64,000 nucleotides of DNA from an uncultured virus (IMG/VR IMGVR_UViG_3300029787_003156) (IMGVR_UViG_3300029787_003156), one strand, 5' to 3'. Positions 4,316 through 64,000 are shown, counted from the stretch's first letter. Notes: generated by a model from the letters alone, not told the origin. Program-made: numbers and translations.

Positions 4316-4329
4316 AACCATGTAAGGGT

Positions 4330-30561: not shown

Positions 30562-30779
30562 GAATTTTTTGCTAACGTTAACAAGAGAGATTTTATCTCA
30601 CTCATATCTGATTTTAGGCTATAAACATCATTTTGTAAAGCCTTAAAATCTTCTTTCTCCTTCAGATCTGCTCTATATGCAGCCATGTATTGTTCATACT
30701 TAGCGGAATCAGAACACGAAACTGCTCCTGTTATATCATCTTTGTACCAATTTTCAATGTCTTTAATTGGAACTTTCAT
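30558..30779 (-). CDS. Small hypothetical protein (73 aa) with C-terminal coiled coil
   Basis: Coupled to the DUF4815 gene stop; ...LKSDMSEIKSLLLTL tail. Confidence 0.7.
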   Translation of the reverse strand: MKVPIKDIENWYKDDITGAVSCSDSAKYEQYMAAYRADLKEKEDFKALQNDVYSLKSDMSEIKSLLLTLAKNS

Positions 30780-45004: not shown

Positions 45005-45011
45005 TATTTAT
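45005..45011 (-). promoter_or_regulatory. Late promoter ATAAATA overlapping the g7 stop codon
   Basis: ccATAAATAac on the minus strand, about 22 nt upstream of the 408-aa gene. Confidence 0.6.
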
Positions 45012-48000
45012 GGGGTTTCGGGGTCAACTCCCTCTTCCCCGTATAGACTTAAGTCTGGAGCAGTCCAGTCATCTGGGACTGAAGTCTCAACATTGATTAT
45101 AGGATTTTGATATCCAGAACCAACGTTACTAATTTCAACACCTGCTACACCAATTAGTGCACGAATGTTTCCATCAAATCCAGATATGGAGTCAACTCTT
45201 ACATTTGGTCTAGTTGTGTAACCAGATCCACCAGATGTAACTTGAACTTTATCAATAGTTCCAGATGTGAGAGTAGCAGATGCCTGAGCATTCTGTCCAA
45301 ATACAGATCCAAGATAATCAAATGTAATTAAGGAGTTTGAAGATTCGATAACAGCAACCTGTCTATCTTCAGTCTCACCTTGTATATCAATGAAGTCACC
45401 CACTTCTATTGGTGGTACAACTTCTGCAGCATCAACGTCCGCTTCAGAACCAACGTATGAGAATGCAACGAATGTTGATCCAACACGAGGAATTTCAGAG
45501 AAGATTATTCTAGAACCAACCAATTCAAAACCAACGCCTGGTTCCTGTATAACACCGTTCAATGAACAAATGATATTGTTCTCTGGTAATATTGTAGATG
45601 ATTGAACACCATCAGTTAGTGTCAATGAGTAGAATACATCATCACGCTTAAGGTTGAATGACTGACGTAATGAATCAAACTCGAAAGATATATCATCTAA
45701 TTGTCTTAGTTTACCAACATAGAATCCTGTGAATGATGCTCCAAGATCAGGTGCTTCAGTAAACTGGATGTTATCTGAGAATGCTGTATAAGCATTTGCT
45801 GAACCTGGTGGTTGTAGAACACCGTTGATGAAGATCAACATATGTCCTGCAGGATCTGGGAAGTACTTGGTTCCGTTTGAGATGGTTAACTTAAAGTTAG
45901 TTTGTGTTCCATCAAATCCTCTGAATGCACGTTCAACACGTCCTCTAAGATCAGTCTTAGTTATGACTGCTGCCTTGTAATTATCCTTACCAAAGATTCC
46001 ATCTCTACCACTAAATGTTCCTGTTACATTTGTTAGATAGAATCGTTTGTTAACACCAACATCTTTGATGTCTTGAATTACTGCACTAGCAGCTCCTGCA
46101 ATATCTAACTTAGTATTAATTACTGCATATCCTAATGGATTGAGTGGATCAGGAGCAACACCAAAATCACCAACTTGATCACCATTAGTAATATTTCCTG
46201 CTGCTAAGATGTAGTATAGAATGTTATTATCAAGATCAACTTCAGTAATATAACCATAGTTGTTTATATCAATGATGCCATTAGTAATCTTATTAAGTTT
46301 ATTACCTACTACAAATACATTTTTATTATTCTGAATTGTAATACCAATTCTTGTATGTCCTGCAGAAGAAATTCTATAACCGATTAATACATCTAACCCT
46401 TCATATCTGGCAACATCCATGAATAACTTAGATTGCTCAGGATATATTACAGCAGATGTTTCAAAACTACCTATTAGAGACTCAGTATCAACAGTTAATT
46501 TACCACCACTATTGTCAAGAACAGCAGCTTGTGCTTTTAAGAATCCAGTTGGAATTGCAGTTTCACCTGTGTCATATCCCTTGAATGGAATATTATTAAC
46601 AAATTCTCCTTCAAGACCAGTGATTTGTATTCTATCTTCAATAGCATTAATCTGTGCAGTTGTTGAGTTAGTTGCACCAACAACATAATCTAATACTGTC
46701 CATGTTCCACCAGTAACTGCAACATCAAGATACTTAAAGTTTTCATCTTCATAGAATGCATAAACAACACCTGTGACTGTTGAATCTCCTTGTTTTTGAA
46801 CAACTTCATTCATGAAGTAAGGACCATCAACAATATTAGCATCAATACGGAATCTTTGATATACTTGAACAATTTCACCTTCGTTCATAGTAACTTTTTC
46901 TAGTTCAGCATATGATCCACTTTCTAAACCATACAAGTAGTCAGCACCTGCAAGACCACCTGCAAGAGCAACAGGGAAATCAAATGTTCCATAATCTTTA
47001 GTTGGAAGACCTATTGCATTTTGAACAACAATGTCAGTATAGTAAGTGCTATTTAATAATTGATTACGAATTATTTCTAAACTATATCTTACCAATCTTT
47101 GAATTGAATCTGGATGATAATAAGTAGATGCACTATCACTGAAGAACGGTACAAAACCTGACTCAGGAGAAGGATTAAGAAGTTGATCTTTCAATGCATC
47201 ATATATCCATTCTTCCAATCTATCGATTGTATATGACTTAATATTATATTCTGTATCAGCGTAGAATACATCTCCAGTTGTAGCAGCATAAGGATCGATA
47301 GTTCCTTTAGTAAGTTTTAGACCCCATGCATAAAGACCATCAGATGCATTACCTGCAAAACTAGTTTGACCAGTAGCATTCTTAATTTGAATTTGTTGAC
47401 GGAGTTGAGAGAAACCGAATGAACATGTAATTGTTCCGTATGCTCTATACCATCCTCCACCATAAGGAATTACTCCAGTTCCATCTACTGTAAGACCACC
47501 TTGAGGTTGGAAGATACTACCTACACTTCCATCTGTTAAATCAATATCATAGAACAATTGCTGTTTCTCAGTAGTATCTCTATCAAGAGCCATCTCGAAA
47601 CGAACTTTACTATACTCACCTGCCTTTAAGAATACAGAATAAGTAAATTGCTGTGATTCAGTAGTTCCTACTTGTCCAGTATCAAATGTCTCTGTTGATG
47701 AGTCAAACTTAACTGTGCCACCGTCAAATGTTTCAAATGCATTTAAACTATAATTTCTGTGTATTAAATGTTCACCAACAGTAGATGAAGCAATAATCTT
47801 ATCAGCACTAATTGCGTTATCAGGTGCAACAGCACTATCAGCACCTATGGTTATTTCGGTAAGTGTATTACCACTACTTAAATCTTCTGGATAATTATAA
47901 CCAACGTTTTCACCTATTAATTGATCTTGAACAGTAGAACTAATTAATCTTGCATTTCTAAGAATTTCAACGTTTGATGGTTGTGTATACCAATCAAATG

Positions 48001-51000
48001 CAATACCAACTCCTCCAGTTGGAATAGTTCCACCACCTTGAGTTCCACCAGTAAGAGTCTCACCTGCAGAAATTGTACCACTAAGGAAAGGTCCGACATA
48101 TAGATGTCTGTCTTTACTATCCCATTCAAGAATCTGAGCGTATCCACCACCATTAGCAGTTACAACTTCACCAACTATAAATTCTCCACTCACACTTGTA
48201 ACAGTTATTCTTCTTGCTGTAGTCTTATGATCTATAGGAGTTGTGATGGAGTCTTGAACTATATTTCCAACTAACTCATCAACGAAATCATTATAGACCC
48301 AAGCACCATTACCAAACTGAGTATTAACAAGGTTGTTTAGTTCATTCTTATAATAGTTTACATTATAAAGAATATTCTTCATACCATTTCTAGCCTCTTT
48401 CTTGCCAGGTGAGAAGAATTCAATTACATGATCAAGAAGATTATTCCAATCTCCAATTACTTGATCAATATCTACAGTCTCTAAATCATCTCTAAATGCT
48501 GCTTGAGCAGCGTTTGTTACATATCCACCGAAAGGAATATTTTCTGATGAATTGAATACGTTATTTCTAATTGCTTCTCTACCTGCTTCCTTAAGAACTT
48601 CCATACCATAAACAGTTGGCATAAGCATATCTTCAATTCTATGAAGAGTTCCATCAGAATTAAGATACACTTCTTGAAGTGCTCTAATAGAACTATTATT
48701 ACCACCTGTTTGTAAATCAGATATTAGATTTTGAATCAATACCTCAACATCTGCTTGGAAGTCTGCTGCTGATATATTATTTCCATCAAATTGGAATGCA
48801 AAGTATGTTGTAGGACCTGCTTGATATGTAAACTCAGTTAACATTCTAGAAGTTACATCTGATGCAAGAAGTTCTCTGTTAAAGTAAAGTCTGTTACCTG
48901 CAGTATCATAATCTAGACCTGTAGGTGCGATAATATCATTAACTGTATTGATTAATGATTCGATATTACTCTTAACATCTGCACAATCACCGATAACACT
49001 AACTGCATCTGTAGCAGTACCACCTGCCCATACGTGAGTATATTCACCACCAGCAATTATAGATTCTGTATCTGCAGAATGGAATGTATGAACATAATCA
49101 CCACCAGATCTTACAGCACCTGCATTAGCAGAAACAAATGTATGTGCTGATGTATCAGATATAGCACCTTGTCCACCATTTACGTTGATAGTAATAGTTC
49201 CTGCTGCGGTATCTGCAGAATCAATATTGATTGCAGTATCGTATGCATAGTCAGCACCAGTTCCTGTATTAGCAGTAGTAGCACGAGGATATGATTTCTG
49301 AATTGTATTACCATCTAATGTGCAAGTAAAGACTAATGACTCAGTAGCAAGTTTAATGCTAGTACCAGCAGTCAAAGTGTGAGATCCTATTGTCAATACC
49401 ATTACACCTGTAGTAGGATCGTAAGTAGCATTAGAAACTGTATGTAAAACTATTGGACTCTGCCCAACGTTTAACTGAATAGTATCTGCTGTAGTTGCAG
49501 TAATATCAATAGGTTTGTTGTAGAATGGATCACTAGTTCTTGGATAAGGTTTAATAGACTCATTTCCATCCATTGCACAAGTAAACTTCAATGCACCTTG
49601 ATTAATCTTAACTGGTTGACCAACCTCTAAATTGTGGTTGCCAATAGTAAGAACTAACACACCAGTTGTAGCAGTGTATGTTGCGAATGTTGGAGTATAC
49701 TTAACTTCTGGAGTAGTTCCTACATTAACAGTTACAGTTGTTGTAGTAGCACTTGTAATTGTAAGTGCCTTACCATATGCAGGATCTGTTGCACGAGGAT
49801 ATGTCTTATTAGAAACGTTACCATCCATTGAACATGTGAATGTCAATGCTTCATTACCAATTTGTAAACTATCTCCTGCAGTAAATCCATGACCAACAGT
49901 AACTGCATTTGTAGCAGATGGAGTAACAACAAAGTTATGAGTTGTGGTATCTGTAATTGCACCCTGACCACCGTTAACGTTAACAGTGATTGTTCCACCA
50001 CTCTGATTTACCTGAGTAATATCAAGGAATTGATTATATGCATAGTCAGCACCATTTGTTGTACCAGCACCAAATGATCTAGGATATCTCTTCTGAGTTT
50101 GATTACCATTACCATTATAATCACAAGTGAATACTAATGATTCCTCAGCAATTCCAACCTTATCATTAGTTGTTAAAGTATGGGTTCCGATTGTAAGTGT
50201 TAGATCACCTGATGTTGGATTATAAACTGCACCACTAACACTAAATGTTCCAGTGTTTGATGCAAGAGTCATTACCAAATCACCAGTTCCTGCGTCATAA
50301 GATGCATTGTATACATCATAAGTTGTTACACTATCATCATTGGTTATACCCCAATCTCCAACGATAAGATTTTCTGTATTATCAGTAGTTAAACTTCCAT
50401 CTATTGCTTGCTTTAAGTAGAATACTAAACGATTATGAACGTAAATTGATTGTAGTAACTGTAATCTAATATGTTGTATTTCATTAAATTGACCAATGTA
50501 GAATCCTGCAGCAGCAACAACGTTCTTATTACCACCATTTTCAATATCATTAGCAAGTCCACCACAAACCTGTGTAAGGTCAGTCTTACAACGCTCAATT
50601 CCATCTGTAGATGCACCATTATTGTTTCTAGGCATATCCTGATAAAGAGCAGGGTAGCGAATTAACATATCATAGGATGCTTTATCTACAATAGCACCTG
50701 TGTTCTGACGAATTAAATTAGCAGCATCACGGAATCTGTAACGACTGAATACATCGATTCTATCTGTGTATACCATTTCCTGAGCATCATCTTCGTATGT
50801 AACTTTGAATGGTACTTCTAGATATGAATGAATTGTTCCACCAACAAATTCATCTACTGGAAGAAGATCAGTAATAGATGCAAGATGATCTACAGGAGAT
50901 GGTAAAGCAGCCTGAGTGATTGTATCTCTAAGAATATCAATTAAGTTGTTTGTAGTTGTATAAACGTCAGAACAATTTGTAATTACATACTTAGACTTAG

Positions 51001-54000
51001 TAATAGAATTAGCATCACCACTAACAAATAAGTGATCATAACGTTTGTCTTGTGGAGACTTGCCAACGTTAACTACGAATCTATTATCATCCTTAGTCTT
51101 AACTTCCATTACATGCTTAGCTGCAGGATCAGTGGCACGTGGATAATCATGTTGTGTTTCATGATTATCTTGAGAACAAGTAAATCTTAGTGAATTATTA
51201 TCAATGTAAATTGAATCACCTGCAACATGTATACCGTTAGAAGTAGCAGAAACAAATGTATGAGTATAGTCACCACCAGTTCTAACACCATTTGTAAGAC
51301 CAGATATAAACTTATGCTTATAGTTACCACCAGTTGAAACTATTGCTCTTGTAATCGCATTAGTTGTAGCAGAAACAAATGTATGAGTTGTAGTATTTGT
51401 AGAAGGAATTTCATCTAATACTTGAACATCGAAAGTAGTATTCGTGACGTTATGAACATCTAACCATCTACCACTAGCAGGATCAGTTACTCTTGGATAT
51501 GGATGGTTTGTAGCATTACTATCATGAGTACAAGTAAATGTAATACCATTATCAGCAATCTTAATTTTTTCACCGTTCTTCATTCCATGTGAAACACTGA
51601 CTGCATCTGCTAATGCTGATACAAATACATGGTTGGTTGTATCAGTAATTGCTCCACCGCCACCGTTAACATTAACAGTAATAGTGGTGTTGGTTGTGTC
51701 TGTAATTACTAATTGATTATTGTAAGCAAAGTCTGCACCGCTAGGAGTTGCAGCACCTGTTGCTCTAGGATATGTCTTATTTGTAGTATTTCCATCTCCA
51801 TTATAATCACAAGTAAATGTTAGTGAATTAGGAGCGATTAATATTTCTTCTCCAACTGCCAAACTATGAGTTCCAATAGTCATTTGCATCTCACCAGTTA
51901 TCGCATTATAAGCAACAGTAGAAGGTTGGAAGTTAGCAGTTAAAACTGTTATGGTCATTAGACCTGTAGTTCCATTATAAACTGCATTAGTTGGTGTAAA
52001 CTGAGATGTTGCTACAGAATCTAAAGTATGATTTGGTGTGAATGAAGGCGTATATCCATCTAAAGCATTGATAGTAATAGTATTTCCTGTTACTGCATCA
52101 ATAGGAATTGCCTGAGCAACAAGTGGATCTCCTTGAATGATACAATTATCAAGAGAACCTGCATAGGTATGAGTTGTTGTATTTGTAGGAGTTGTTCCTT
52201 GTAAAATATCAACTTCAAACTGAGTATCAGATACATTCTTGATAAACAACCACTTATCACTTGCAGGGTCAGTAGACCTTGGATATGGATGTAAAGTAGC
52301 ATTATTATCATGTGCACATCTGAATGTTACGCCACCATCTTTGATTTTAATAGGTGTACCAGCAACCATACCATGTCCAAGGGTAATACCATTTGTAGTA
52401 GCTGAAACGAATGTATGTGCTGATGTATCTGAGATAGCACCTTGACCACCATTCAAGTTAACAGTTATAGTATTGTCACCAACATCCATAACTCTGAGCC
52501 ACTTATCATAAGCATAGTCAGCACCACTTGTTGTATTAGCACCTGTTGATCTAGGATAAGATTTCTGTGCAGTGTTGCCATCTAATGTGCAAGTAAATGT
52601 TAGTGAGTTAGGAGCAAGTTTAACTTTGTTGCCAGGTACTATACCATGACCAACTTGAACTGCACCATCAAGTGCACCAACAAATGTATGATTACTAATG
52701 TCAGTAATAGCACCTTGACCACCGTTAACGTTAACAGTGATTGTTGTTCCTGTAACTGCACTAATGTCTAACCATGTATCATAAGCATAATCTGCTTTTG
52801 AATTTGTTGAGTTGTAAGCACCTGCAGCACGAGGATAAGGGTGAATTGTTGTATTATTATCGTTATTATAATCACAAGTAAACTTAAGTGATTCTGGAGT
52901 AATTTTAATTCTGTCACTAGTTGTTAGACTATGAGTTCCAAGTGTAAGAACTAAAGTTCCAACAGAAGGTGAGTAAGTTGCACCAGTAACATTATATGAT
53001 CCTGCATTCTGTGATATTGTTAATACACATGCACCTGATGTGACATTATAATTTGCAGCAGAAGCAGTAAATGATTCAGTAGGAATTGAAACTGTAAGAG
53101 CACCTGTTACTGGGTTGTAACTTGTACCTGTAGATGGAGTATGAGTAGCAACATTAGATCTTGGATATACATGCTTAGTAGCATTGGTATCCATATCACA
53201 TGTCATTAGTAATGAATCAGGAGCAAGTTTAACAGTGTAATTTGCCTTGCTAACACAGTTATTAACTGCACTTACAAATGTATGAGTATCAACGTTAGTA
53301 GAAGGAATTGAATCTAAAACTTGAACATCAAAAGTATCTGTAGTTACGTTGAATATTGGAATCCATTTGTTGCTAACTGGGTCAGTTGAACGTGGATAAT
53401 CTTTCTGTGCAGCAGTTCCAGTTGCACCACCGTAAGGACAACTTAATTTAATACCATTATCAGCAATCTTAATTTTCTCACCATTAGAGAAGTTATGACC
53501 TGCAATAGTCAGAGTCATTACACCACTAACAGGGTTATAAGCAACATCAGTTGGTGTATGTTGTGTTGGAGCAGGATAACTATGTGTTCCGACATTTAAT
53601 TCTAAAGCACCAGTACTAGCATTATAAGTTGCAGCAGATGGAGTATATGCCTTAGTTGGAGTAGCACCAACGTTAACAGTAACAGTATTATCACGCTTAA
53701 CAATACCATCCTTAACTGCTCTTACAAATGTATGTGCATACTGACCTGTAGAACTTGCTTCACCAACAAATACTGTAAATGTATGATCACTAACTGCTTT
53801 AATTCTTAACCATCTAGCAGCGTATGGATCTTTACGTCTTGGATATGAATGCTCTGTTTTATTACCATCTTTAGCACAAGTAAAGACAAGAGAATTATTT
53901 TCTAATCTAAGTTCTGTGCCAACTGTTAAACCATGATTTAGTATATTAATAGTCAATAGTCCAGTTGCAGTATTATAACTTGCACCTTCAGCAGTCATTC

Positions 54001-57000
54001 TAGTGTTACCATTACTCCAAATTGGAATAGCGGTATTATAAACTGAATCATCGACTCTAGGATAAGAATGAACTGTAGAATCATTATCCTGTGAGCATGT
54101 AAATGATAGAGCGTCTTTAGCAAGTTTTAGTGTTTCACCAGATCTTGTTAGACCATTAACTTTAGCACGAACAAATGTGTGAGCAGTTTGGTTAGTAGAA
54201 GGTGTAGAACTTAGTACTTGAACATCGAATGTTGTATGAGTTACATTAGAAATAGGTAACCACTTATTATAGTAAGGATCTGTAATTCTTGGGTATGTGT
54301 GTTCAGTAGCACCACTATCTTCAAGACATGTAAATGTTAGAGAGTCTCTATCGAACATGACTCTATCACCAACATATAAGCCATGCTCTACTGTTATAGC
54401 GTTATCAAGTGCAGATCTAAACTTATGCTTATAATTACCACCAGTAATTACAGCACCTGCTTTAGAAGTTGAATATGTATGAGTTGTTGTATTACTTGAA
54501 ACACCAACATTAATAGTAATAGTTGTTCCAGTTGTAGCAGTAATTGGAATAGATTGTTCAAATGACTTATCACGTTTCTGTGATATAACATCTGTAAAAC
54601 TTACAAAAGTATGAGTAGATGTATTTGTGGAAGGAGCAGTATCTAATACTTGAACATCGATTGATGTTGTTTGAACATTACTTATTTCAATCCATTTATC
54701 ACTAATAGGATCATAAGGTCTAGGATATCTGTGAGTAGTTGCATTATTATCTTTATCACATGTGAATGAAAGTGAGTAATCAGGAATCTTAACCTTATCA
54801 CCATTCTTCATTCCATGTCCCTGATTAACAGTGAATGTTACTACACCTGTTGTTGGATTATATGATGCATCAGTTGGAACATGCACATCAATTAGAGGTC
54901 TTGGGTAGTAGTGAACACCTGCACCATATGTGCATGTAAATCCAATACTTTGAGTTGCTATTCTAATAGAAGTACCTGAAGACAAACTATGATTTCCAAT
55001 AGTCAACTCCATATCACCTGTATTAGGATTGAATGTTGCATTGGAAACATCAAATTCAACTATAGGAGATTTACCAACGTTTACTGTGAATGATTCATCA
55101 GTTACATGAAGAACTTCTAATGCTGTATTACGTGCAGGGTCAGTTGCTCTTGGATATGGGTGATCAGTAGCATAGTCATCTTGAGAACATCTGAATGTAA
55201 GACCATCATTAGCAATCTTAACTTTCTGTCCTGTTTTTAAGTTATGTGAACTAACAAAGATTTCTAAATCTCCACTTGTAGGACTATAATCAGCATCAAT
55301 AACATTATACTGATCGTTACCAATACCTACTGTCATTACACCACTAGTAGGATTATATGCTGCACTTTCAACAGTGTATTTACTTCCTGGTCTTAGATCA
55401 TTGTCACCAATGTCCATAGTTAAGAAACCAGTATTACTATTATAATCTGCTGAAGTTGCAGTAAAGTTTACTGTAGGAGATGTTCCAACATTTACACTAA
55501 AGTTATCATTATCAATCTTCGATACTTCTAACCAGCCTTGATTTGCTGGATCATCATCTCTAGGATAACTCTGTGATACTACATTACCATCACAAGTACA
55601 AGTCATGGTAATAGAATTAGGCTCAAACTTAATTCTGTCCCCAGTTTCTAGTGAGTGCCCAACAGATTCAATAGTCAAAACACCAGTGGTAGCAGTGTAT
55701 CCCGACCCTGATGCTGTTATAGTTCTAGGGGCCGCGAGTCCATGACTTGCAGCTGTTATTTCCATGTCACCCATTGATGGATGATAGTCGATTGCTGTTG
55801 GTGTAAACTTAGTTAATGTTTGAGATGTGTAACCATCAAATGTAATAGTAGTGTCATACTTCTGAGTTAAACCATGATCACCTTGAGTACTCCAAGGAAC
55901 ATTATTAACAATATACTTAGCAATTTTATCTAATATTTCATAAACATAGACTGTCATAGAGACATCATCTTCTACGTTTACAATTTGAATTGGATTAACT
56001 TCTCTATTAACATAGTATGAAGCTGCTTTCCACATATGATGATTACTACCATTACGTAAATCTTCTACTATAGAATCGACAACATCTCTTACATCATCTT
56101 CACAATCAACTTCACTACCCTTAACACTATGAGCAGGGAATACTTCCTTCATAATATAAACTGTTTCTTGAGCAAGATATTCCTTGTTCATTAACATTAA
56201 ATCTGCAGCGTTAATATATCTGTGACTCTTAATATTAAATCCTGCAGGTGCAGCAGTTGGATTAGAACTATTTGTTGTTAATATAGAATCGTTATTAACA
56301 TATTCACCCTTAGTAAATGATTCACCACCAGACCAATCTTCAGTCTTAGTTGCTCCATCAGCACCATCAAAGTGGCATAATACTTTAGTATCAGTATCTC
56401 CTTGGAAAATACCATTAGGAGAAGTAAATGGAATTGTTGCATAACGTGCAACAGTAGAATATCTAAACTCATCAATATGAGCAGTTATAGAATTAAGACC
56501 AGATAAATCTGCACCAATTCTAATTGGTCTATCTAAGGTATAATTACCACTATCTGTTCCAGTTCCAATCTCAACTCCATTAGATATAATCTTAACAGTA
56601 GTTCCAGTTCTTTGAATTACAAGATGATACCAAACATTATTGTTTAGAGCATTTCCACCAGAGGTTGCTATATCTGAACCATTAACATTAACACGAACTT
56701 GTGCTGCTTCTAAGTAAATTCTAAGTGCAACTTCAGTAGCACTTGTTCTCATATCAACTAAAGTCTTAGTATCTGCTAAAGATACTGCATCTAGACGAAT
56801 CCAGAATTCAATAGTGTAATCACCTGTACCACGAGTAAATTCAGATGATGCAGGAATTTGAATATAATCACTTGTTGCTAGATCAAGTTGTAATGAAGAA
56901 TCTCCAAATTTCTTAATTGAAGTATCTAATTGAGCACTACCAGAGAAGTTGAATACATGATAATCACCACCACCTCTTAATGATCTACCAATCTTACCAA

Positions 57001-60000
57001 GATATATTGTATTACCTGAGAAATTAAATCCAATTACTTCTGCTTTAGTATCTCTAGTTCTTATTGTATCGCCTGTGGAGAATAGACCAGTTCCTATCTT
57101 ATCTTTAAATGATAGTTTTCTAGACTTACCAGCTTCACCACTATTAAATGTTCCAACATTATTACCATAATCAAATTTATAGTTCCTAATCTTCTCACCT
57201 ATAGATAATGATCCAGAAGCATTATCGTAAGGAATTACAATTTGACTTATAAATTCGTTAGCAGGGAATTGAGAATCAATATCTGTTACGTAGTCTGTAT
57301 AGTCAACAACACTAATTGTTGATAATGAAATATCATCTAGAACAATATTTGGGTATGTAATTGATGTAACTCTGTTGAATAGTAATCCAAAGAATGAAGA
57401 TCCTTCTGAAATATTAACCTGACCGATAAACTCATTAGTTGTAGGATCTTGATATGTTGATGTAGCAGTCAATCTTGCAACTACACCAGACTGAGCACCA
57501 ATAATAACATCATCAAGAGCAAGATCAAATAAACCAGGTGTAGACTGATATGTTCCAGTAGTTTTACTTAAAGTTAACTTGTCATTAACAAGAACTGTTG
57601 TTGCATATACAGGACCATCTTCTGCCTGTGTTGCTGCTGTAGTACCTAATTCACCTCTAGTTATTTCTAATACAACTGAATCATTGTTAGTAGTAACGTT
57701 AGTTACATTTACAATTTCAGAACCAATCTGATAGTTACCACCTACAGTAAATGTTCCTGCTGCAGGAGGTGTATCAGCATCTGTAGAAAGTATCTTTGCT
57801 GCTACAATTTCAACTGATGCAGTTGAAGGACCTATACCATAACGTAATTGACCAAGTGGAGCTTCAGAACCACCTGCTAAGTTAATTGCTTCAACTTTAG
57901 CAGTCTCTCCAGTAAGGTTTGAAACCTGCTCTCCAAATACAAACAATCCAAGATTTGAAACAGTTGATACTGAAGCATAGTTTGCAATAAATCCAGTAGC
58001 ACTGTTACTTACCAATTCACCAACTGTAAATGCAGTTCCTTCTACAAAGAAACCGAAAATTGAATTACCAACAACAGCTGTAACAGTAAATCTTGCTAAA
58101 GAAGTCTGTCCAGCCATTGTATTTCCCTTGAGTGGGAATATTCCACTGATATTAGTAAATTCAAGAGTAGATATAGTAATCTCTTGAATAGTAACGTTTA
58201 CATACTTAATACTTGCAGGTGGTTGTGGTGGTTGACTGAATACAATAGAATCACCTTGAATATTAAATGATGTCTCAGGAGTTTGAGCAACACCATTTAA
58301 GATGATCATTAACTGATTAGCATTAGCAACTACGTTGTCACCATTAACTTTTAATTGGAACTGTGTTTTAACACCATCAAATTGATTTGATATATCATCA
58401 ATACGCTGAACAACAGAAGTCAAAATGTTCTCAGAAGATGTCAATCTCTTCTGTCTGAATAATACTTCTGAGTTATTAAACTGTGAGTAGACTGGTTCAA
58501 CTAGAGAGAAACTCTGAATGTTAGGTACAATTGCTTCTCTTGCTAATTCAACAGCTTTGGTTATCTGGAAATCAGTTTCTTTGTTAGGAATTTGACCATA
58601 TTCAGCCAGATTTAATTCACCGAATACTTTGAATGATGCAGGGTGAACGTTCTTAAGTAATATCTCTTTCCACTCACCAATAGAAACAGCAGACTTAACA
58701 GCATATGAGAAGTCCTGATAATAGTAACTATCTTGAATTTTCTGAATAATTTCAGATGGTTTACCAATATCATCAATGAACTGACCAGTTGTTTTAGTGA
58801 TAGAACCAATTTCAAGAACACCACGAGCAATCTTAAGATCACTTATAATACCAGAAGACTTAGAAATAACACCTGTTATTCTTTCGTTAGCATTAAAGTT
58901 TCCAGTGTAATCAACAATCTTAATAATTCTAGGTCCTACCTGCCAACCTTGGTTAGTAGAAACATATCCACTAGCAGTTGCAGCATCTAAAGTATCTCCT
59001 TGATAAACAAGTTCACCTTCTAAGAATGTAGAAGTAATAACGTTAGCAGTTGCTGCACCACCGAATGATTCAGTTAATATTGTTTGACGACCTGTTCCTG
59101 CGTTAACAAATGATAAAGAGTCACCTAATGCAGCGTTAGCAGCAGTAATAGCAATCTTTAATTGGTTTTCTTCTAGTGAGTTTGCAGTACCAGCAATAGC
59201 ATAATATGTGTTAGTAGAATTCAAACGACCAACAGCACCTGCTGATAATGGGAACTCAGCACCATCACCAGTATCAGTAACTGTTAATGTAACCTCAGAA
59301 CCATTCACAATACCATGTGGGAAAGCAAATTGTAGTAATCCTAAGTCAAGGTTAACAACATAGTTGAAAGAAGATCTTAATGCAACAGTAGGAGCAGAAG
59401 AGTAACCTGATCCTGGATCTTTAACAAGAATATCATCTAAACGACCATTCTTAATGAATGCTTCAGCAGTTGCATTTTGTCCACCACCACCTGTGATAAC
59501 AACGGTTGGTGCTTGTGAATATCCAGAACCTGGATCTGTAACTGTAATACTATCAAGTATACTTGTGGATGTTAACTGTGCGTTAATTGGGAATGAAATC
59601 TCAGGACGTAAAGTATAGTCATGAGGATAATCATATCCAAAGTTGTTGTTCTGTAATTTCTTAATCTTACCAACTTTAGTTCCTTTGGTAAAGATAGAAG
59701 CACCAGTTCCTGCAGGAGGAATAACAACATTCAAATCAACACCAGAACCTGTTAAACCTGCTCCAAGAATACCCGATATAGATTCAACATCAATACTTGC
59801 AGTAGTATATCCTTTACCTGGTGATGTAACAACAACAGACTGTATTTGACCAGGAATCGTTACTCCATCATCATCAGTTCCGTCTGCTACAGTAATAGAA
59901 ACAAATCCACCTTCTCCATCACCTGCAATAGGAACACTATTGTAAACACCTACAGCATATTCAGTACCTGGTGCATCAATTTGAATTCTTTCTATTTGTC

Positions 60001-63000
60001 TAGATGACTGAATAGATGTAACAACTGGAAGTCTAGTATAGAAACCTCCTCCATTAACAATACGAATATCACTTATAGAACCAACTGCTTTCAATGAACT
60101 AGTGCTATAAGATGTATTGATAACATCAGCATTACCCTCTGGTTCGTTAGCAAGAACAAATTTAAAGGTATCTGCACCACGAGTAATAGTTGCACCAGAT
60201 GTAGAAGTAATTGCGAAATTACCTACGTAAGGTGAATTAACAACATCTAAGTAACTAGATGCAATAACTGGAGAATCAGCACCTGTTCTAGATGGGTCAA
60301 AGTAGTAAGAAATATTAGTAACAATGTCAGTATCAACTTTTAACTTAACAGTAGGGTTAGGAACACCTTGACCAGTAATACCAGGTGTACCTACTCTTTC
60401 AATAGAGTTGAATGAATATTCCAGTTTATAAAGATTATCTTTAGAGAATGATAAGTTACCACCCGCCATAGAAGAATGACCAACATCAAAGAGATATTGA
60501 TGTCCATAATACATTTTAAGAACAGGTGACTTAACGTAGATATTAACACTTCCAGAACTTGTAGCTGGTGAAGTTATTGCAGCAGAAGGTAATTTATATG
60601 TAAATTCAACAGGACTTACAATAGTGTGAACTGGGAAAGCACCATCATATTCATCATAAACGACACTATCAACAGTTTGTGATGGGTTACCATCAATACT
60701 AACCATTTCACCTTGAGTAAGGTAATGACTATTTGCAGTAACAATATAAACTTCATCACTATTAGCAACAGCAGTTACTTGTATAATTTTCTTAAGTGTT
60801 GCTACTAAAGTAATCTTAAGAACACCAGTTAAATTGATAATTGATGCAGTTGTATATGCAGCATTGAAACTAATATCACCAGAGTTAATATTAACAACAG
60901 ATCCAGGAATAAAAGGTGAACCACCAGCTACTTCATCAATTCTTATAGAGTAATCATCATCAGTATAAGGTTTAAAGTTAGTTAATTCATCAAGATTATT
61001 TGAACCTCCTTCTGGGTGATTAAAATTGTTTAGATCTATATCAAATGTACCAGGTGTAGTGTTGTTTAGTAGTGGGAAGGTGTATATTAATTCATTAACA
61101 TCTGCGGGTATAGGACCTACAATTCCATAAGTGCTTTGCTCATTAAACTGTTCTGTAGTTAATTCACCAGTATTAAGATCATTTGCCCAAGCATTATTAT
61201 TAACAGCAAGATATATCTTATTACCTACACTATTTTGTCTAATAATGTATCCACTATTAATGAATGATCCTGATGAACTACTTAATACTAATTTTGAACC
61301 TGTAGTAAATACAAATTGCTGATTTAGAGTAAGTTCTTGAATATTATCAATCTTGACTGTAGGTGTAACTTTAAAGAAGTATCTGTCTTTAACAACTGCA
61401 GTAACTCTTAATTTTTTAGAACCTGGTGAAGGAACAGTAGCAGTTCTAGAACTCCAAACGTCTTGAGTATAAGATAATGAATCAGAGTCCTGAGTCATTG
61501 ATGTATCAGCATCATCAAAGTCTAAGTTTTGGAATCCTGCTTCTGCTAATCCAAATCCAGTATTATTAACAGTTAATGGTAAACCTGTTTGTAATACAAT
61601 AGCAGTTCTAGTAAATCCAACTTGTGTGTTAGTTTGAACAGTTTGAGTTCCAATTCTTGCAGCATCAGAGTTCTTATCAACTTTTAAACCCCAACCAACA
61701 TAATCGATATAATCATATTTGTTAGTGTAAGTAGAGAACCATGATGTATCAGTCCATGTAAATCCTTCACTAAACTCACCTGCAATAGGATAGTTAGTAA
61801 CATCATTAGGAACTGTAGGAACAACTGCTCTGTTTCTAATACGAAGATTATCAACAAAGTATTGACCTTGTTCATTAGAACGGAATTGATTTAAAGTTCC
61901 ACTCTTACCAGGAATATTACCAATGTATAGATTTTGATTCTGGAATGCAGTATTATCAATAGTTCCTTGAAGAACTTGTATACCGTTGACATATGCTGTA
62001 TACTGACCTGCAGATTTAGTAAGTGCAACAAATTGCCAAGTATTATCGGCAAACATTGTTGTAACTGTAGATTGTAGTGAACCTGATGCAGAGTTGAGTG
62101 CAGTTCCATTTGCAGTAACAACTAACTGCATCTCTCCAGATGAAATATCATAATACAACCATAGACCACCAGTAGATAATGTTGCATCACCTATTGCTAT
62201 TAGGGTTTGTTGTGTTTGAGAGTGTGTATTATTGTTATTAGCAGCATCTTTAAACAACATGAACTCAATAGTCCAGTCGCCAGTCATTTTAGTTGTTAAA
62301 TCTGATCCATTAACTTGTATAACTGAATTTACCCAAGTACTAGGAGTAGTAGAGTCTTTTCCTAGTAATTTTGCAAATCCATTAGTAGTATCATATTGAA
62401 GTGAGTTACCGTCTCCTACAAAGGTTGCTGTATAGTGTCCTGTAACATCTGTAGTTGCACCACTGGTAAATGGTATTAGAAGTTCATTTCTATTCCAAGA
62501 AGTTTGACCAAATACATGAATATCACCAGAACTATCAGGATATAAACTATGTGCAGTTACACCTTCAATATTATTAAGATCAAATTTATTATTTGTCTGA
62601 TTCTTAATAATACCGTTATAACCAACTTTAACTACGTCTACAGTTAATTCTCCATTTGTATTGAGATATTTGTTGACAGCAATATTAAGATCACCAAAGA
62701 TATCAATATGAGTTCTTTTAGCAACATTAATAGTGTATCCACCAGCTACTGCATAACGATAGTTCCAAAGGAAAGCACCATCTGAATCTAATTTACCAAT
62801 CCAGAAACCATCTTTTGTTGTATTGTCTGATTTAAGTCTTGTTGTAGCAGTAATGTATAATTCACTAAATTCATCGATAGTAAGACTTGTATCCATGAAT
62901 GAATACAGTGTATTAGTTAATTGCTTAGTCCAAACAAGACTAATTGCACTAGTACCTACAGTTGCTTTACCAATACCTGTATCAACGCTTGTTGCATTAG

Positions 63001-64000
63001 GACTTGTAGCAATTTCTAATGTATAGTATATGTCAGTTCCATTTACAAGTAAATCTGTAACTTTTTCAGAAACATTTACAGAAGTAATCTTTCTCTTAAC
63101 AGCAAAGTTACCAAGTGTGTCTACAACAGCAATATAAGCATCAAATGGATTACCAGAGTTAGTATTAGTGAAACCACCTAAAACAAATCTAGTATCAGAG
63201 TATTTTGCAATAGCACTAATATTGTCGGAACGAGTAGAACCAGATATACCTGCATATGCCTTTTGATACTGTAAAGTAGCACTTAATCCATTTTCTGCCT
63301 GTGTATACTTACAAAGAACAACATCAGGGTTATATGCCTCTAAGATACTTGCATTTGGTTTATTATGACCTGCAACGTAAATATCTTGTCCATCAATTAA
63401 TAATCTCTCAAATTCTACTTCTTGTTGTCCATCAGTACTCTTAATTGTCTTTTCCCAGTCTTTTACACCAGTAGCAGATAGTTTTGCTAAGAATCCAATA
63501 GTATATCCAAAAGAGTCTTTTGTTTTACCACAAATGAATATTTCTTTAGCATCATTTACAAATACGTCATTAACCTTAACATAATTCTCATTTGCAATCT
63601 TAGAAACATAATAATCTGCTTTCTTATAGATTTGAGGGTGTGATAATATAACTCTTGGGTTTGTAGTATAGTTTTGACCAGAGTTAGTAATATTAACTGT
63701 AGAAATAGATCCTACAGATGTTACAACCGCTTCTAATGCTGCAGCAGTTCCATCACCATCAAGAATGATTGTTGGAGGTAATTCACTATTATATCCAGAA
63801 CCTTGCTGATCAATAACAATTTCTTCAACACCTTTAATTTGTTTAACAACAAAAGTTTTATTAGTGTTGTTCATTATAGGTGTGTAATCTATAACAACCT
63901 GATCATCAACAGTTAAGTTGTGAGGAGTTGAAGTCTTTAAAACACCGTAGTTAATACCACCAATACTTTCATAACTGTAAGTTGAAACTGCCTCTCCTTT
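45008..64000 (-). CDS. g7: Giant baseplate wedge initiator (gp7-like), >6330 aa; 5' end outside the window
   Basis: Frame stays open from 63874 to 64000 (KGEAVSTYSYESIGG...DYTPIM). gp7-type core IQDSYYYQDFSYAVKS...W...L...VHPASFKVFGE at about 58620-58760. Also beta-propeller-like repeats, two LamG-like domains and Cys/His repeat arrays; lies upstream of g8. Confidence 0.85.
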   Translation of the reverse strand, partial: KGEAVSTYSYESIGGINYGVLKTSTPHNLTVDDQVVIDYTPIMNNTNKTFVVKQIKGVEEIVIDQQGSGYNSELPPTIILDGDGTAAALEAVVTSVGSISTVNITNSGQNYTTNPRVILSHPQIYKKADYYVSKIANENYVKVNDVFVNDAKEIFICGKTKDSFGYTIGFLAKLSATGVKDWEKTIKSTDGQQEVEFERLLIDGQDIYVAGHNKPNASILEAYNPDVVLCKYTQAENGLSATLQYQKAYAGISGSTRSDNISAIAKYSDTRFVLGGFTNTNSGNPFDAYIAVVDTLGNFAVKRKITSVNVSEKVTDLLVNGTDIYYTLEIATSPNATSVDTGIGKATVGTSAISLVWTKQLTNTLYSFMDTSLTIDEFSELYITATTRLKSDNTTKDGFWIGKLDSDGAFLWNYRYAVAGGYTINVAKRTHIDIFGDLNIAVNKYLNTNGELTVDVVKVGYNGIIKNQTNNKFDLNNIEGVTAHSLYPDSSGDIHVFGQTSWNRNELLIPFTSGATTDVTGHYTATFVGDGNSLQYDTTNGFAKLLGKDSTTPSTWVNSVIQVNGSDLTTKMTGDWTIEFMLFKDAANNNNTHSQTQQTLIAIGDATLSTGGLWLYYDISSGEMQLVVTANGTALNSASGSLQSTVTTMFADNTWQFVALTKSAGQYTAYVNGIQVLQGTIDNTAFQNQNLYIGNIPGKSGTLNQFRSNEQGQYFVDNLRIRNRAVVPTVPNDVTNYPIAGEFSEGFTWTDTSWFSTYTNKYDYIDYVGWGLKVDKNSDAARIGTQTVQTNTQVGFTRTAIVLQTGLPLTVNNTGFGLAEAGFQNLDFDDADTSMTQDSDSLSYTQDVWSSRTATVPSPGSKKLRVTAVVKDRYFFKVTPTVKIDNIQELTLNQQFVFTTGSKLVLSSSSGSFINSGYIIRQNSVGNKIYLAVNNNAWANDLNTGELTTEQFNEQSTYGIVGPIPADVNELIYTFPLLNNTTPGTFDIDLNNFNHPEGGSNNLDELTNFKPYTDDDYSIRIDEVAGGSPFIPGSVVNINSGDISFNAAYTTASIINLTGVLKITLVATLKKIIQVTAVANSDEVYIVTANSHYLTQGEMVSIDGNPSQTVDSVVYDEYDGAFPVHTIVSPVEFTYKLPSAAITSPATSSGSVNIYVKSPVLKMYYGHQYLFDVGHSSMAGGNLSFSKDNLYKLEYSFNSIERVGTPGITGQGVPNPTVKLKVDTDIVTNISYYFDPSRTGADSPVIASSYLDVVNSPYVGNFAITSTSGATITRGADTFKFVLANEPEGNADVINTSYSTSSLKAVGSISDIRIVNGGGFYTRLPVVTSIQSSRQIERIQIDAPGTEYAVGVYNSVPIAGDGEGGFVSITVADGTDDDGVTIPGQIQSVVVTSPGKGYTTASIDVESISGILGAGLTGSGVDLNVVIPPAGTGASIFTKGTKVGKIKKLQNNNFGYDYPHDYTLRPEISFPINAQLTSTSILDSITVTDPGSGYSQAPTVVITGGGGQNATAEAFIKNGRLDDILVKDPGSGYSSAPTVALRSSFNYVVNLDLGLLQFAFPHGIVNGSEVTLTVTDTGDGAEFPLSAGAVGRLNSTNTYYAIAGTANSLEENQLKIAITAANAALGDSLSFVNAGTGRQTILTESFGGAATANVITSTFLEGELVYQGDTLDAATASGYVSTNQGWQVGPRIIKIVDYTGNFNANERITGVISKSSGIISDLKIARGVLEIGSITKTTGQFIDDIGKPSEIIQKIQDSYYYQDFSYAVKSAVSIGEWKEILLKNVHPASFKVFGELNLAEYGQIPNKETDFQITKAVELAREAIVPNIQSFSLVEPVYSQFNNSEVLFRQKRLTSSENILTSVVQRIDDISNQFDGVKTQFQLKVNGDNVVANANQLMIILNGVAQTPETSFNIQGDSIVFSQPPQPPASIKYVNVTIQEITISTLEFTNISGIFPLKGNTMAGQTSLARFTVTAVVGNSIFGFFVEGTAFTVGELVSNSATGFIANYASVSTVSNLGLFVFGEQVSNLTGETAKVEAINLAGGSEAPLGQLRYGIGPSTASVEIVAAKILSTDADTPPAAGTFTVGGNYQIGSEIVNVTNVTTNNDSVVLEITRGELGTTAATQAEDGPVYATTVLVNDKLTLSKTTGTYQSTPGLFDLALDDVIIGAQSGVVARLTATSTYQDPTTNEFIGQVNISEGSSFFGLLFNRVTSITYPNIVLDDISLSTISVVDYTDYVTDIDSQFPANEFISQIVIPYDNASGSLSIGEKIRNYKFDYGNNVGTFNSGEAGKSRKLSFKDKIGTGLFSTGDTIRTRDTKAEVIGFNFSGNTIYLGKIGRSLRGGGDYHVFNFSGSAQLDTSIKKFGDSSLQLDLATSDYIQIPASSEFTRGTGDYTIEFWIRLDAVSLADTKTLVDMRTSATEVALRIYLEAAQVRVNVNGSDIATSGGNALNNNVWYHLVIQRTGTTVKIISNGVEIGTGTDSGNYTLDRPIRIGADLSGLNSITAHIDEFRYSTVARYATIPFTSPNGIFQGDTDTKVLCHFDGADGATKTEDWSGGESFTKGEYVNNDSILTTNSSNPTAAPAGFNIKSHRYINAADLMLMNKEYLAQETVYIMKEVFPAHSVKGSEVDCEDDVRDVVDSIVEDLRNGSNHHMWKAASYYVNREVNPIQIVNVEDDVSMTVYVYEILDKIAKYIVNNVPWSTQGDHGLTQKYDTTITFDGYTSQTLTKFTPTAIDYHPSMGDMEITAASHGLAAPRTITASGSGYTATTGVLTIESVGHSLETGDRIKFEPNSITMTCTCDGNVVSQSYPRDDDPANQGWLEVSKIDNDNFSVNVGTSPTVNFTATSADYNSNTGFLTMDIGDNDLRPGSKYTVESAAYNPTSGVMTVGIGNDQYNVIDADYSPTSGDLEIFVSSHNLKTGQKVKIANDGLTFRCSQDDYATDHPYPRATDPARNTALEVLHVTDESFTVNVGKSPIVEFDVSNATFNPNTGDMELTIGNHSLSSGTSIRIATQSIGFTCTYGAGVHYYPRPLIDVHVPTDASYNPTTGVVTFTVNQGHGMKNGDKVKIPDYSLSFTCDKDNNATTHRYPRPYDPISDKWIEISNVQTTSIDVQVLDTAPSTNTSTHTFVSFTDVISQKRDKSFEQSIPITATTGTTITINVGVSSNTTTHTYSTSKAGAVITGGNYKHKFRSALDNAITVEHGLYVGDRVMFDRDSLTFTCLEDSGATEHTYPRITDPYYNKWLPISNVTHTTFDVQVLSSTPSTNQTAHTFVRAKVNGLTRSGETLKLAKDALSFTCSQDNDSTVHSYPRVDDSVYNTAIPIWSNGNTRMTAEGASYNTATGLLTINILNHGLTVGTELRLENNSLVFTCAKDGNKTEHSYPRRKDPYAARWLRIKAVSDHTFTVFVGEASSTGQYAHTFVRAVKDGIVKRDNTVTVNVGATPTKAYTPSAATYNASTGALELNVGTHSYPAPTQHTPTDVAYNPVSGVMTLTIAGHNFSNGEKIKIADNGIKLSCPYGGATGTAAQKDYPRSTDPVSNKWIPIFNVTTDTFDVQVLDSIPSTNVDTHTFVSAVNNCVSKANYTVKLAPDSLLMTCDMDTNATKHVYPRSNVATHTPSTGTSYNPVTGALTVSIPTESFTASAANYNVTSGACVLTISQNAGSYNVTGATYSPSVGTLVLTLGTHSLTTSDRIKITPESLKFTCDYNNDNNTTIHPYPRAAGAYNSTNSKADYAYDTWLDISAVTGTTITVNVNGGQGAITDISNHTFVGALDGAVQVGHGIVPGNKVKLAPNSLTFTCTLDGNTAQKSYPRSTGANTTSGADYAYDKWLRVMDVGDNTITVNLNGGQGAISDTSAHTFVSATTNGITLGHGMVAGTPIKIKDGGVTFRCAHDNNATLHPYPRSTDPASDKWLFIKNVSDTQFEVDILQGTTPTNTTTHTYAGSLDNCIIQGDPLVAQAIPIDAVTGNTITINALDGYTPSFTPNHTLDSVATSQFTPTNAVYNGTTGLMTITVLTANFQPSTVAYNAITGEMQMTIGTHSLAVGEEILIAPNSLTFTCDYNGDGNTTNKTYPRATGAATPSGADFAYNNQLVITDTTNTTITVNVNGGGGAITDTTNHVFVSALADAVSVSHGMKNGEKIKIADNGITFTCTHDSNATNHPYPRVTDPASGRWLDVHNVTNTTFDVQVLDEIPSTNTTTHTFVSATTNAITRAIVSTGGNYKHKFISGLTNGVRTGGDYTHTFVSATSNGIHVAGDSIYIDNNSLRFTCSQDNHETQHDYPRATDPAAKHVMEVKTKDDNRFVVNVGKSPQDKRYDHLFVSGDANSITKSKYVITNCSDVYTTTNNLIDILRDTITQAALPSPVDHLASITDLLPVDEFVGGTIHSYLEVPFKVTYEDDAQEMVYTDRIDVFSRYRFRDAANLIRQNTGAIVDKASYDMLIRYPALYQDMPRNNNGASTDGIERCKTDLTQVCGGLANDIENGGNKNVVAAAGFYIGQFNEIQHIRLQLLQSIYVHNRLVFYLKQAIDGSLTTDNTENLIVGDWGITNDDSVTTYDVYNASYDAGTGDLVMTLASNTGTFSVSGAVYNPTSGDLTLTIGTHTLTTNDKVGIAEESLVFTCDYNGNGNQTQKRYPRSFGAGTTNGADYAYNQFLDITQVNQSGGTITVNVNGGQGAITDTTTHNFVVTPSATNAVTVGHGFTAGDSLQIGNEALTFTCSMDGNVSNKTYPRATDPAYGKALTITSATTTTVTVNVGTTPEVKYTPTFATYTATTGVLVLTIGNHNLEVGQPVKINQGALKFTCAMDGNESIKPYPRTSDPFYNKPIDITATTADTIQLNVGQSPIVLHTVSNATYDPTTGVMVLTIGSHTLTAGTSIKLATESLVFTCTLDGNTIQKSYPRATTANTGTGADYAYDTAINIDSADTAAGTITINVNGGQGAISDTSAHTFVSANAGAVRSGGDYVHTFHSADTESIIAGGEYTHVWAGGTATDAVSVIGDCADVKSNIESLINTVNDIIAPTGLDYDTAGNRLYFNRELLASDVTSRMLTEFTYQAGPTTYFAFQFDGNNISAADFQADVEVLIQNLISDLQTGGNNSSIRALQEVYLNSDGTLHRIEDMLMPTVYGMEVLKEAGREAIRNNVFNSSENIPFGGYVTNAAQAAFRDDLETVDIDQVIGDWNNLLDHVIEFFSPGKKEARNGMKNILYNVNYYKNELNNLVNTQFGNGAWVYNDFVDELVGNIVQDSITTPIDHKTTARRITVTSVSGEFIVGEVVTANGGGYAQILEWDSKDRHLYVGPFLSGTISAGETLTGGTQGGGTIPTGGVGIAFDWYTQPSNVEILRNARLISSTVQDQLIGENVGYNYPEDLSSGNTLTEITIGADSAVAPDNAISADKIIASSTVGEHLIHRNYSLNAFETFDGGTVKFDSSTETFDTGQVGTTESQQFTYSVFLKAGEYSKVRFEMALDRDTTEKQQLFYDIDLTDGSVGSIFQPQGGLTVDGTGVIPYGGGWYRAYGTITCSFGFSQLRQQIQIKNATGQTSFAGNASDGLYAWGLKLTKGTIDPYAATTGDVFYADTEYNIKSYTIDRLEEWIYDALKDQLLNPSPESGFVPFFSDSASTYYHPDSIQRLVRYSLEIIRNQLLNSTYYTDIVVQNAIGLPTKDYGTFDFPVALAGGLAGADYLYGLESGSYAELEKVTMNEGEIVQVYQRFRIDANIVDGPYFMNEVVQKQGDSTVTGVVYAFYEDENFKYLDVAVTGGTWTVLDYVVGATNSTTAQINAIEDRIQITGLEGEFVNNIPFKGYDTGETAIPTGFLKAQAAVLDNSGGKLTVDTESLIGSFETSAVIYPEQSKLFMDVARYEGLDVLIGYRISSAGHTRIGITIQNNKNVFVVGNKLNKITNGIIDINNYGYITEVDLDNNILYYILAAGNITNGDQVGDFGVAPDPLNPLGYAVINTKLDIAGAASAVIQDIKDVGVNKRFYLTNVTGTFSGRDGIFGKDNYKAAVITKTDLRGRVERAFRGFDGTQTNFKLTISNGTKYFPDPAGHMLIFINGVLQPPGSANAYTAFSDNIQFTEAPDLGASFTGFYVGKLRQLDDISFEFDSLRQSFNLKRDDVFYSLTLTDGVQSSTILPENNIICSLNGVIQEPGVGFELVGSRIIFSEIPRVGSTFVAFSYVGSEADVDAAEVVPPIEVGDFIDIQGETEDRQVAVIESSNSLITFDYLGSVFGQNAQASATLTSGTIDKVQVTSGGSGYTTRPNVRVDSISGFDGNIRALIGVAGVEISNVGSGYQNPIINVETSVPDDWTAPDLSLYGEEGVDPETP
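48990..55815 (-). repeat. Two arrays of ~100-aa Cys/His repeat domains (15 + 4 units) within g7
   Basis: Recurring motifs Y.P.TG.L, H.L..G, FTC..D, YPR..DP, HTFVSA; arrays at about 50990-55815 and 48990-50330. Confidence 0.9.

Follow-up and report, generated by a model that had tools for sequence, protein, structure and literature searches.

Nested barrel domains in a giant virion protein of an uncultured cyanophage form two self-closing trees

The 64,000-nucleotide stretch of DNA analysed here (the window) belongs to an uncultured virus, IMGVR_UViG_3300029787_003156. An open reading frame (ORF) on its minus strand, 45008..64000, is 5'-open at the end of the window. In the parent record the same frame runs 1,703 codons further, to an ATG directly after a stop, giving a protein of 8,033 amino acids (aa) encoded in a frame open over 24 kb. 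Residues are numbered here from the window end, and adding 1,703 converts them to full-protein numbering. The region under study, 50990-55816 on the minus strand (aa 2729-4337), lies within this giant ORF and had been described from its sequence as a set of repeat domains inserted into one another like balanced brackets. We find that it holds 15 such units, and that a second, smaller array of four units follows it.

The repeat unit is about 100 aa long. It begins with an N-terminal hairpin, continues with a core that has the motifs G-D-x-V-K-I/FTC/YPR and then a strand pair, and closes with an H-x-F strand. Two profiles were made. The first drew on the window's 7 uninterrupted units, the second, of 103 positions, on 550 distinct complete units taken from 120 homologues in the databases. 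Conservation among these 550 units is 1.00 at C46, Y57, P58 and H95, 0.99 at G18, 0.98 at H27 and D62, and 0.97 at R59. The near-invariant His27, Cys46 and His95, together with Asp62, may join the loop after the hairpin, the core and the closing strand, perhaps as a metal clamp. At E 0.001 or better the unit profile matched just 658 cluster representatives among 1.84 billion proteins. Paralogous units in the window are 40-61% identical to one another, and in resembling the other units of their own protein in this way the inserted units are old internal copies.

Within the region there are 15 YPR motifs and 15 F/L-x-C middles, and four additional YPR motifs lie beyond it at aa 4639-4904. A strict regular expression recognised 13 of the 15 openings and the profile all 15. 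Both profiles cut the region into fragments of complementary range, such as 4-30 with 25-101, 4-60 with 61-101, and 3-29 with 30-61 and 61-101. Searching the gaps between profile matches added the short closing strands and one remnant of a strand pair. The fragments were read with a stack parser, in which a fragment from the start of the profile opens a unit, the next fragment extends the unit on top of the stack only if it continues the range of that unit, and the end of the profile closes it. All 19 units closed and none was left open, 15 in array 1 and 4 in array 2. Every continuation fragment matched the top of the stack (16/16, and 12/12 where the test is informative), and the lone orphan of the parse was a 0.8-bit match outside the arrays. 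When the 35 fragments were shuffled 100,000 times, no order parsed perfectly, so chance does not explain the nesting. Each reassembled unit of the window shows every conserved motif exactly once. The preliminary description had counted 15 openings, 15 Cys middles and 15 closings in the region, and had held that they were not in tandem but properly nested to depth 7. The profile and the parse agree with it on all of these points, and a profile from uninterrupted units, mapped along the protein as it had proposed, gives fragment matches that balance.

Array 1 is one rooted tree, 1>2>3>{4>5>6>7, 8, 9>{10, 11>12>13}, 14>15}, and reaches depth 7 on two branches. All of its units lie on the minus strand; their fragments are given here in reading order, with profile ranges in brackets. 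Unit 1 (51014..55816, depth 1) is made of 55718-55816 (3-35) and 51014-51229 (29-101). Inside it, unit 2 (51239..55726, depth 2) is made of 55478-55726 (4-86) and a closing strand at 51239-51277 (90-102). Unit 3 (51296..55474, depth 3) is broken into four fragments, 55385-55474 (3-32), 54002-54145 (30-77), 53663-53695 (75-85) and 51296-51334 (89-101), and carries four branches.

The first branch starts with unit 4 (54161..55384, depth 4), made of 55304-55384 (4-30) and 54161-54391 (25-101). It holds unit 5 (54407..55315, depth 5), with fragments 55067-55315 (4-86) and a closing strand at 54407-54439 (91-101). Unit 6 (54461..55060, depth 6) is split after YPR into 54896-55060 (4-60) and 54461-54574 (61-101), and surrounds the uninterrupted unit 7 (54593..54883, depth 7). 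This is the arrangement that had been noticed earlier as HYYPRP, a complete unit and then DKSFEQSIPI. The second branch is the uninterrupted unit 8 (53711..54007, depth 4), which lies within the strand pair of unit 3. In the third branch, unit 9 (52010..53656, depth 4), in fragments 53576-53656 (3-29), 53153-53248 (30-61) and 52010-52132 (61-101), contains both the uninterrupted unit 10 (53261..53569, depth 5) and unit 11 (52157..53149, depth 5), made of 53063-53149 (4-31) and 52157-52378 (26-99). Unit 11 in turn contains unit 12 (52394..53080, depth 6), made of 53009-53080 (3-26) and 52394-52651 (26-102), and this contains the uninterrupted unit 13 (52670..53002, depth 7). The last branch is unit 14 (51362..52009, depth 4), made of 51929-52009 (3-29) and 51362-51592 (26-102), around the uninterrupted unit 15 (51608..51937, depth 5). 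The stacked closings THTFVSATT, KHKFISG and THTFVSATS, also singled out earlier, belong to units 14, 3 and 2.

Array 2 lies about 230 residues downstream of array 1 on the same strand and is a self-closing tree of its own, 16>{17, 18>19}, with depth 3 and with the stacked closings GGDYVHTFHSA and GGEYTHVWAGG at its end. Unit 16 (49019..50329) is made of 50258-50329 (3-26), 49712-49900 (24-86) and 49019-49042 (93-100). It encloses the uninterrupted unit 17 (49925..50254) and unit 18 (49067..49708), whose fragments 49457-49708 (3-86) and closing strand 49067-49108 (89-102) flank the uninterrupted unit 19 (49121..49447). Insertions in the two arrays recur at four sites, one following the hairpin, one following YPR, one within the strand pair (profile 73-77) and one preceding the closing strand. 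Three of these loops had been named before, and the site inside the strand pair is added here. Units 12, 13, 15, 17 and 19 form a 'long' subtype, with an extra loop after YPR (GA.T.SGADYAY) and the end NVNGGQGAI.D. Four of these five copies are the innermost, uninterrupted unit of their branch, and unit 12 is itself split by unit 13.

Ten IMG/VR contigs with 82-100% identity (L001-L010) and the ENA protein P0001 have their fragments in the same order as the window. The differences among the contigs are one weak closing match missing in several, an extra weak hairpin match in L002, and the truncation of L008 and L010. In the same close relatives the two halves of unit 1 evolve at very different rates. 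The hairpin (37 aa; 55718-55816) differs by 0-1 residues in all nine relatives that cover it, L008 being cut short there, and the partner half (51014-51229) has just 65-70 of 83 residues identical in seven of nine covering relatives, L010 being cut short.

Pairing hairpins with their remainders through paralogue identity was dropped, as 40-61% identity is uninformative. More distant relatives, at about 50% and about 40% identity, have contiguous units where the window has split ones, and also the reverse. L013 (about 50% identity) has 13 units, and in it one contiguous unit replaces 4>5>6>7 and another replaces 11>12>13. The hairpin of unit 4 best matches L013 unit 2757-2849 with a score of 76 (14/22 identities; next best 62), and the remainder of unit 4 best matches the same unit with a score of 235 (45/68; next best 230). 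Both parts of unit 11 best match L013 unit 3184-3284, the hairpin with 77 (13/19; next best 58) and the remainder with 209 (40/71; next best 193). All four fragments of unit 3 best match their syntenic L013 counterparts, and the fragments of unit 9 match an L013 orthologue that is split as well. The reverse case is seen in L020, whose counterpart of unit 2 is interrupted behind the hairpin by a complete unit. Each half of this counterpart has its best match in the unbroken part of window unit 2 (scores 60 and 229, next best 58 and 144). That two halves match one contiguous orthologue means that whole units have been gained or lost within the loops of other units, which is what the comparison of tree topologies suggested by the preliminary description has brought out. 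On this comparison, the outer bracket partners appear to derive from one contiguous ancestral domain.

The nesting extends across the family. We parsed the 120 homologues with a grammar that ignores closing strands, with shuffled fragment order as the control. Of 1,701 units opened, 1,577 were closed, compared with 25,647 of 34,020 in shuffled order; 497 of the 1,577 closed units were split. Informative continuation events fell on the top of the stack in 329 of 356 cases (3,034 of 6,644 when shuffled), and 33 of the 120 proteins parsed perfectly, against 19 of 2,400 shuffles. The break points cluster in four short stretches of the profile, at positions 29-32, 57-64, 73-77 and 85-92. Related phages carry from 13 to about 30 units, the highest number being in P0003 and P0004, and tree topology varies strongly between them. 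Related arrays are present in the cultured phages P-SSM4, P-SSM3 and Syn30.

Structure prediction of nested segments, another of the earlier suggestions, led to the same picture, with fragments distant in sequence pairing into one barrel. An AlphaFold2 model of module 14>15 (219 aa, from a 42-row alignment of such modules) had a mean predicted local distance difference test score (pLDDT) of 92.9 and a predicted template-modelling score (pTM) of 0.78, and its separated hairpin blocks had a pLDDT of 94-96. For module 5>6>7 (308 aa, 19 rows) the values were 88.2 and 0.71. In the latter model unit 7, contiguous at residues ~143-252, matches the UBA1 FCCH domain with Z 8.0. Among the 50 solved chains listed for it, 19 align 64-79 residues to a range running from 86-89 to 294-296, which is unit 6 (residues 89-143 and 251-288) wrapped around unit 7. 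Nine of these 19 chains supply a contiguous barrel of 85-110 residues; examples on this range are SelB 183-271 (70 aligned, root-mean-square deviation (rmsd) 3.0) and eRF3 467-551 (64 aligned, rmsd 2.6). As single contiguous barrels superpose on the split unit 6, its two distant fragments form one barrel in the model. For the 14>15 model, none of the solved chains listed spans the barrel of the unit 14 opening and remainder, and the contiguous unit 15 accounts for the matches listed.

The two halves of unit 1, aa 2727-2763 and aa 4254-4336, are about 1,490 residues apart and were folded as separate chains in an ESMFold2 complex prediction. Their docking score was 0.79, and the best of 3 controls scored 0.03. 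Of 157 solved complexes 116 attain a score of 0.79, as do 2 of 215 mismatched pairs, benchmarks that hold only roughly here as the docking used our own alignments. Runs agreed in at least 95% of contacts, and the pLDDT of the partner was at least 85. In the predicted complex strand 2 of the hairpin pairs with the RFVVNV strand and strand 1 with the closing strand. The models thus predict that the split fragments form one domain in three dimensions.

By these models the unit is predicted to be a β-barrel close to the E1 FCCH domains and to phage endosialidase barrels, without a Pfam family of its own. The nearest solved folds are E1 FCCH domains, with Z 6.0-8.0. The best of these matches (PF16190; UBA1, UBA6, UBA7) have Z 7.4-8.0 and rmsd 2.4-3.0 over 76-81 aligned residues. 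The phage endosialidase barrels (PF12195; phi92 4hiz and K1F endoNF 1v0e and 3ju4) follow with Z 6.8-7.6 and rmsd 2.1-2.4 over 74-83 residues; unit 15 reaches Z 7.5 to both the phi92 barrel and UBA1 FCCH. FAD-binding and EF-Tu-domain-2-type barrels rank lower. The Z values of both nearest folds fall in a range that the search tool calls middling. FCCH is an inserted domain in E1, and the endosialidase barrel is inserted in a propeller, has a sialic acid site and binds sugar. E1 FCCH belongs to the ubiquitin system, a context that the phage unit does not share, and the endosialidase barrel, which does come from a phage tail spike, is present in single copy with no self-nesting.

Sequence searches gave fainter links to the same folds. 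The region scores 18.6 bits (E 0.002) against the Pfam E1_FCCH model, whose cut-off is 29.5, and 1 of 42 modules matches it, with E 0.064; PF16190 is precomputed on 3 of the 120 homologues, and in the ESM Atlas the nearest cluster that bears a name is a viral FCCH one, with a score of 0.91. Similarity to PF12195 is negligible, with 2 of the 42 modules matching and a best E of 0.022. No Pfam family reached its cut-off for the region or for the 42 modules, the commonest weak match being Cthe_2159 (11 of 42 modules, best E 0.0002). A sequence search of the PDB gave no match for the repeat, and Foldseek against the PDB gave none at E 0.001 or better.

Recursive insertion of a domain into its own kind was previously known mainly from cyanobacterial RNA polymerase. 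For Si3 of the β' subunit there are descriptions of a crystal structure with eight SBHMs, four of them discontinuous (PMC10895346), and of 'HABAS domains ... inserted into other HABAS domains' (PMC11515920), and a survey of 48,551 insertion events gives six-level nesting in Prochlorococcus rpoC2 (PMC13114784). The preliminary description had taken the architecture to be undescribed for phage virion proteins. A literature search that did not extend to supplements and subscription journals agrees with this: it found no account of such nesting in virion proteins of cyanophages or other phages, and the papers found on P-SSM4 gp7-type genes do not describe the repeat or the nesting. For proteins in general the principle is not new, since the recursive self-insertion of Si3 had already been solved and published. 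The two systems have in common a small β domain family repeatedly inserted into itself, with discontinuous domains assembled from distant segments. They appear to differ in fold, SBHM/HABAS in Si3 and a barrel nearest to the FCCH and endosialidase types in the phage; among the 50 matches listed for each fold search there was no SBHM/HABAS domain (CATH 2.40.50.100) and no RNA polymerase chain, other barrels taking all the places. They also differ in setting, as Si3 is part of a polymerase and the phage array part of a virion protein. The phage arrays go further than Si3, with 19 units here and about 30 in the largest homologues, and with depth 7. They use four recurrent insertion sites and, unlike Si3, show a quick turnover of topology among close relatives.

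The giant gene is syntenic with P-SSM4 gp7 and lies in the baseplate gene cluster of a T4-like cyanomyovirus. Downstream of it come, in order, genes for a gp9-like protein (408 aa), a wedge subunit (1,389 aa), a gp8-like protein (510 aa) and a 2,408-aa protein. The same order, gp9-like, wedge, gp8 and VrlC, follows PSSM4_080 of P-SSM4 (7,312 aa, annotated gp7). A tblastn search with the region matched 320 phage records, all of them Synechococcus, Prochlorococcus, 'Cyanophage' or 'Marine' entries, with P-SSM4 gp7 at the top (36.6% identity over 93% of the region). Tree topology differs between these phages. PHROG 701, 'virion structural protein', is matched along the entire profile (1-1698, 1699-4417 and on to 6134), and among the structure-library matches the named ones are baseplate, tail and fibre proteins of cyanophages. 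Sullivan et al. (2005) describe such genes, each longer than 15 kb, as fusions with gp7 homologues that probably encode fibre subunits. A phmmer search of PDB sequences with the whole protein except aa 2729-4330 found no T4 gp7, a single-sequence search being weak at such distance. As no solved gp7 was matched by sequence, 'gp7' serves here as a positional label, taken from synteny and from the annotation of PSSM4_080.

Other parts of the locus have features of their own. Two concanavalin A-like/laminin G domains lie upstream of the arrays, at aa 614-701 and 2376-2519 of the piece 55800-64000 (minus strand; Pfam Laminin_G_3, E 1.6e-24). The C-terminal part of the protein, at about 47300-47700 on the minus strand (aa 433-567 of the piece 45011-49000), has a weak similarity to the RcGTA head spike fibre Rcc01080 (E 3.3e-06), which was the sole match of the non-repeat parts in the PDB sequence search. 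Past the baseplate genes there are two more very large ORFs on the minus strand, 23197-30234 (2,345 aa) and 30779-38005 (2,408 aa), the second with a P-SSM4 counterpart annotated 'VrlC protein'. The unit profile found no copy in either at E 0.001 or better.

Sequence, comparison and prediction agree on the nesting, on the recurrent insertion sites and on the gain and loss of units between relatives. We put at about 0.8 the probability that the region is part of a virion protein in which 19 barrel copies are nested in two self-closing trees, and that these trees are an evolvable surface likely to contact the host. In each unit the first strand adjoins the last, so a whole unit would fit into a loop of another without breaking the host unit. 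Recursion of this step would give a tree in which two linkers tie every domain to its parent. Unit 1 brackets the whole of array 1, as unit 16 does array 2, so the N- and C-ends of each tree would meet and each array would be a side branch of the polypeptide path. Such side branches could add mass and surface with the spacing of the flanking protein parts unchanged, and could grow or shrink without shifting the conserved flanks. The strong variation of topology between phages fits this model of side-branch growth. We infer that the trees, proposed earlier as a dendritic appendage of the baseplate, stand out from the baseplate or fibre region as an exposed, evolvable surface, most likely for contact with the host envelope. 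A wider proposal is tentative: that recursive self-insertion is the main way in which a host-contact organ of marine cyanomyoviruses grows, a tree of His/Cys-clamped barrels with ends that always meet, in which whole branches of binding surface could be added, dropped and swapped while baseplate geometry stays intact.

Several observations weigh against the nested reading itself. Where two openings, a whole unit and two remainders follow one another (O O U R R), last-in-first-out pairing cannot be told from other pairings by the profile on its own. Among the homologues 124 of the 1,701 units remain open, 202 of 825 continuation fragments are orphaned (101 of them score under 5 bits and 39 reach at least 20 bits), and 27 of the 356 informative events match a deeper open unit, not the top of the stack. 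The full grammar, including closing strands, gave a perfect parse in only 5 of 121 proteins; its parser was replaced, as a single missed 10-residue closing match derails all later parsing. Hand checks of two of the cases, P0002 and P0001, traced the failures to weak hairpin or closing matches below threshold, and after its check P0002 is a perfect nest. One unit of P0002 (the same as L020), at aa 3795-3905, seems circularly permuted, with a closing-like HTWTGG ahead of the opening hairpin; it sits between FKC...GAGVH and YPR of its host unit, a fifth and rarer insertion site. The orthology margins of the long fragments are small (235 against 230; 209 against 193), so this pairing leans on synteny too. 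Pairing within the AlphaFold2 models was read indirectly, from the ranges aligned in the fold searches and from pLDDT. Docking shows complementation, not specificity, and other hairpins of the family would probably pass too; split-barrel halves may also pass by their likeness to known barrels. The unseparated runs, the permuted unit and the events that hit deeper units would all suit fragments that are real but unbalanced, being separate short elements or pairing with near neighbours in a crossed or domain-swapped manner, as tandem or circularly permuted domains, and HABAS domains in Si3 do exchange elements. We think this improbable, since the typed fragments of the window are last-in-first-out in every informative case, the two halves of unit 4, and likewise of unit 11, match one contiguous orthologue, the split unit 6 superposes as a single barrel, the unit 1 halves dock far above their best control, and the separated hairpins are predicted with a pLDDT of 94-96. 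Far less probable again is an assembly artefact or repeat-driven misjoining in a metagenomic contig. The contig is from an uncultured virus and is estimated to be 71% complete, and repeats can misassemble, but the frame is open over its whole 24 kb, independent contigs and P0001 have the same fragment order, cultured phages have related arrays, and paralogous units at 40-61% identity are too divergent for misjoining.

The main rival to the host-contact inference accepts the nesting and makes the trees structural, not adhesive: a rigid spacer, a shield or a bulk element, placed at the baseplate periphery or in the fibre shaft and taking no direct part in recognising the host. The solved precedent, Si3, forms a rigid, elongated body that is no binding array, the conserved residues of the phage unit are core-like and identical in all units, and a pTM of 0.71-0.78 suggests a fixed geometry between domains. 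On the other hand, topology and unit number (13 to about 30) vary strongly, a pattern more usual for parts that set host range, the endosialidase barrel is among the nearest solved barrels, and Sullivan et al. (2005) took the giant genes for fibre subunits. We hold a purely structural role to be possible but doubtful, and keep to the reading of the trees as an evolvable surface that probably meets the host.

Discontinuous domains of this kind defeat ordinary domain annotation, and these proteins of 5,000-8,000 aa, which are among the largest phage genes, have been labelled merely 'structural protein'. The nested grammar makes such giant proteins readable, so that topologies can be compared between phages and branches excised for expression. 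It also provides a second, much larger natural case of recursive same-domain insertion beside Si3, and through its many independent gain and loss events the evolution and folding of nested architectures can be put to the test. Should the trees contact the host, they would be candidate host-range determinants of viruses that kill Prochlorococcus and Synechococcus. If self-insertion is indeed the way in which this organ grows, it would give these phages a modular route to host-range change, distinct from that of tandem-repeat fibres.

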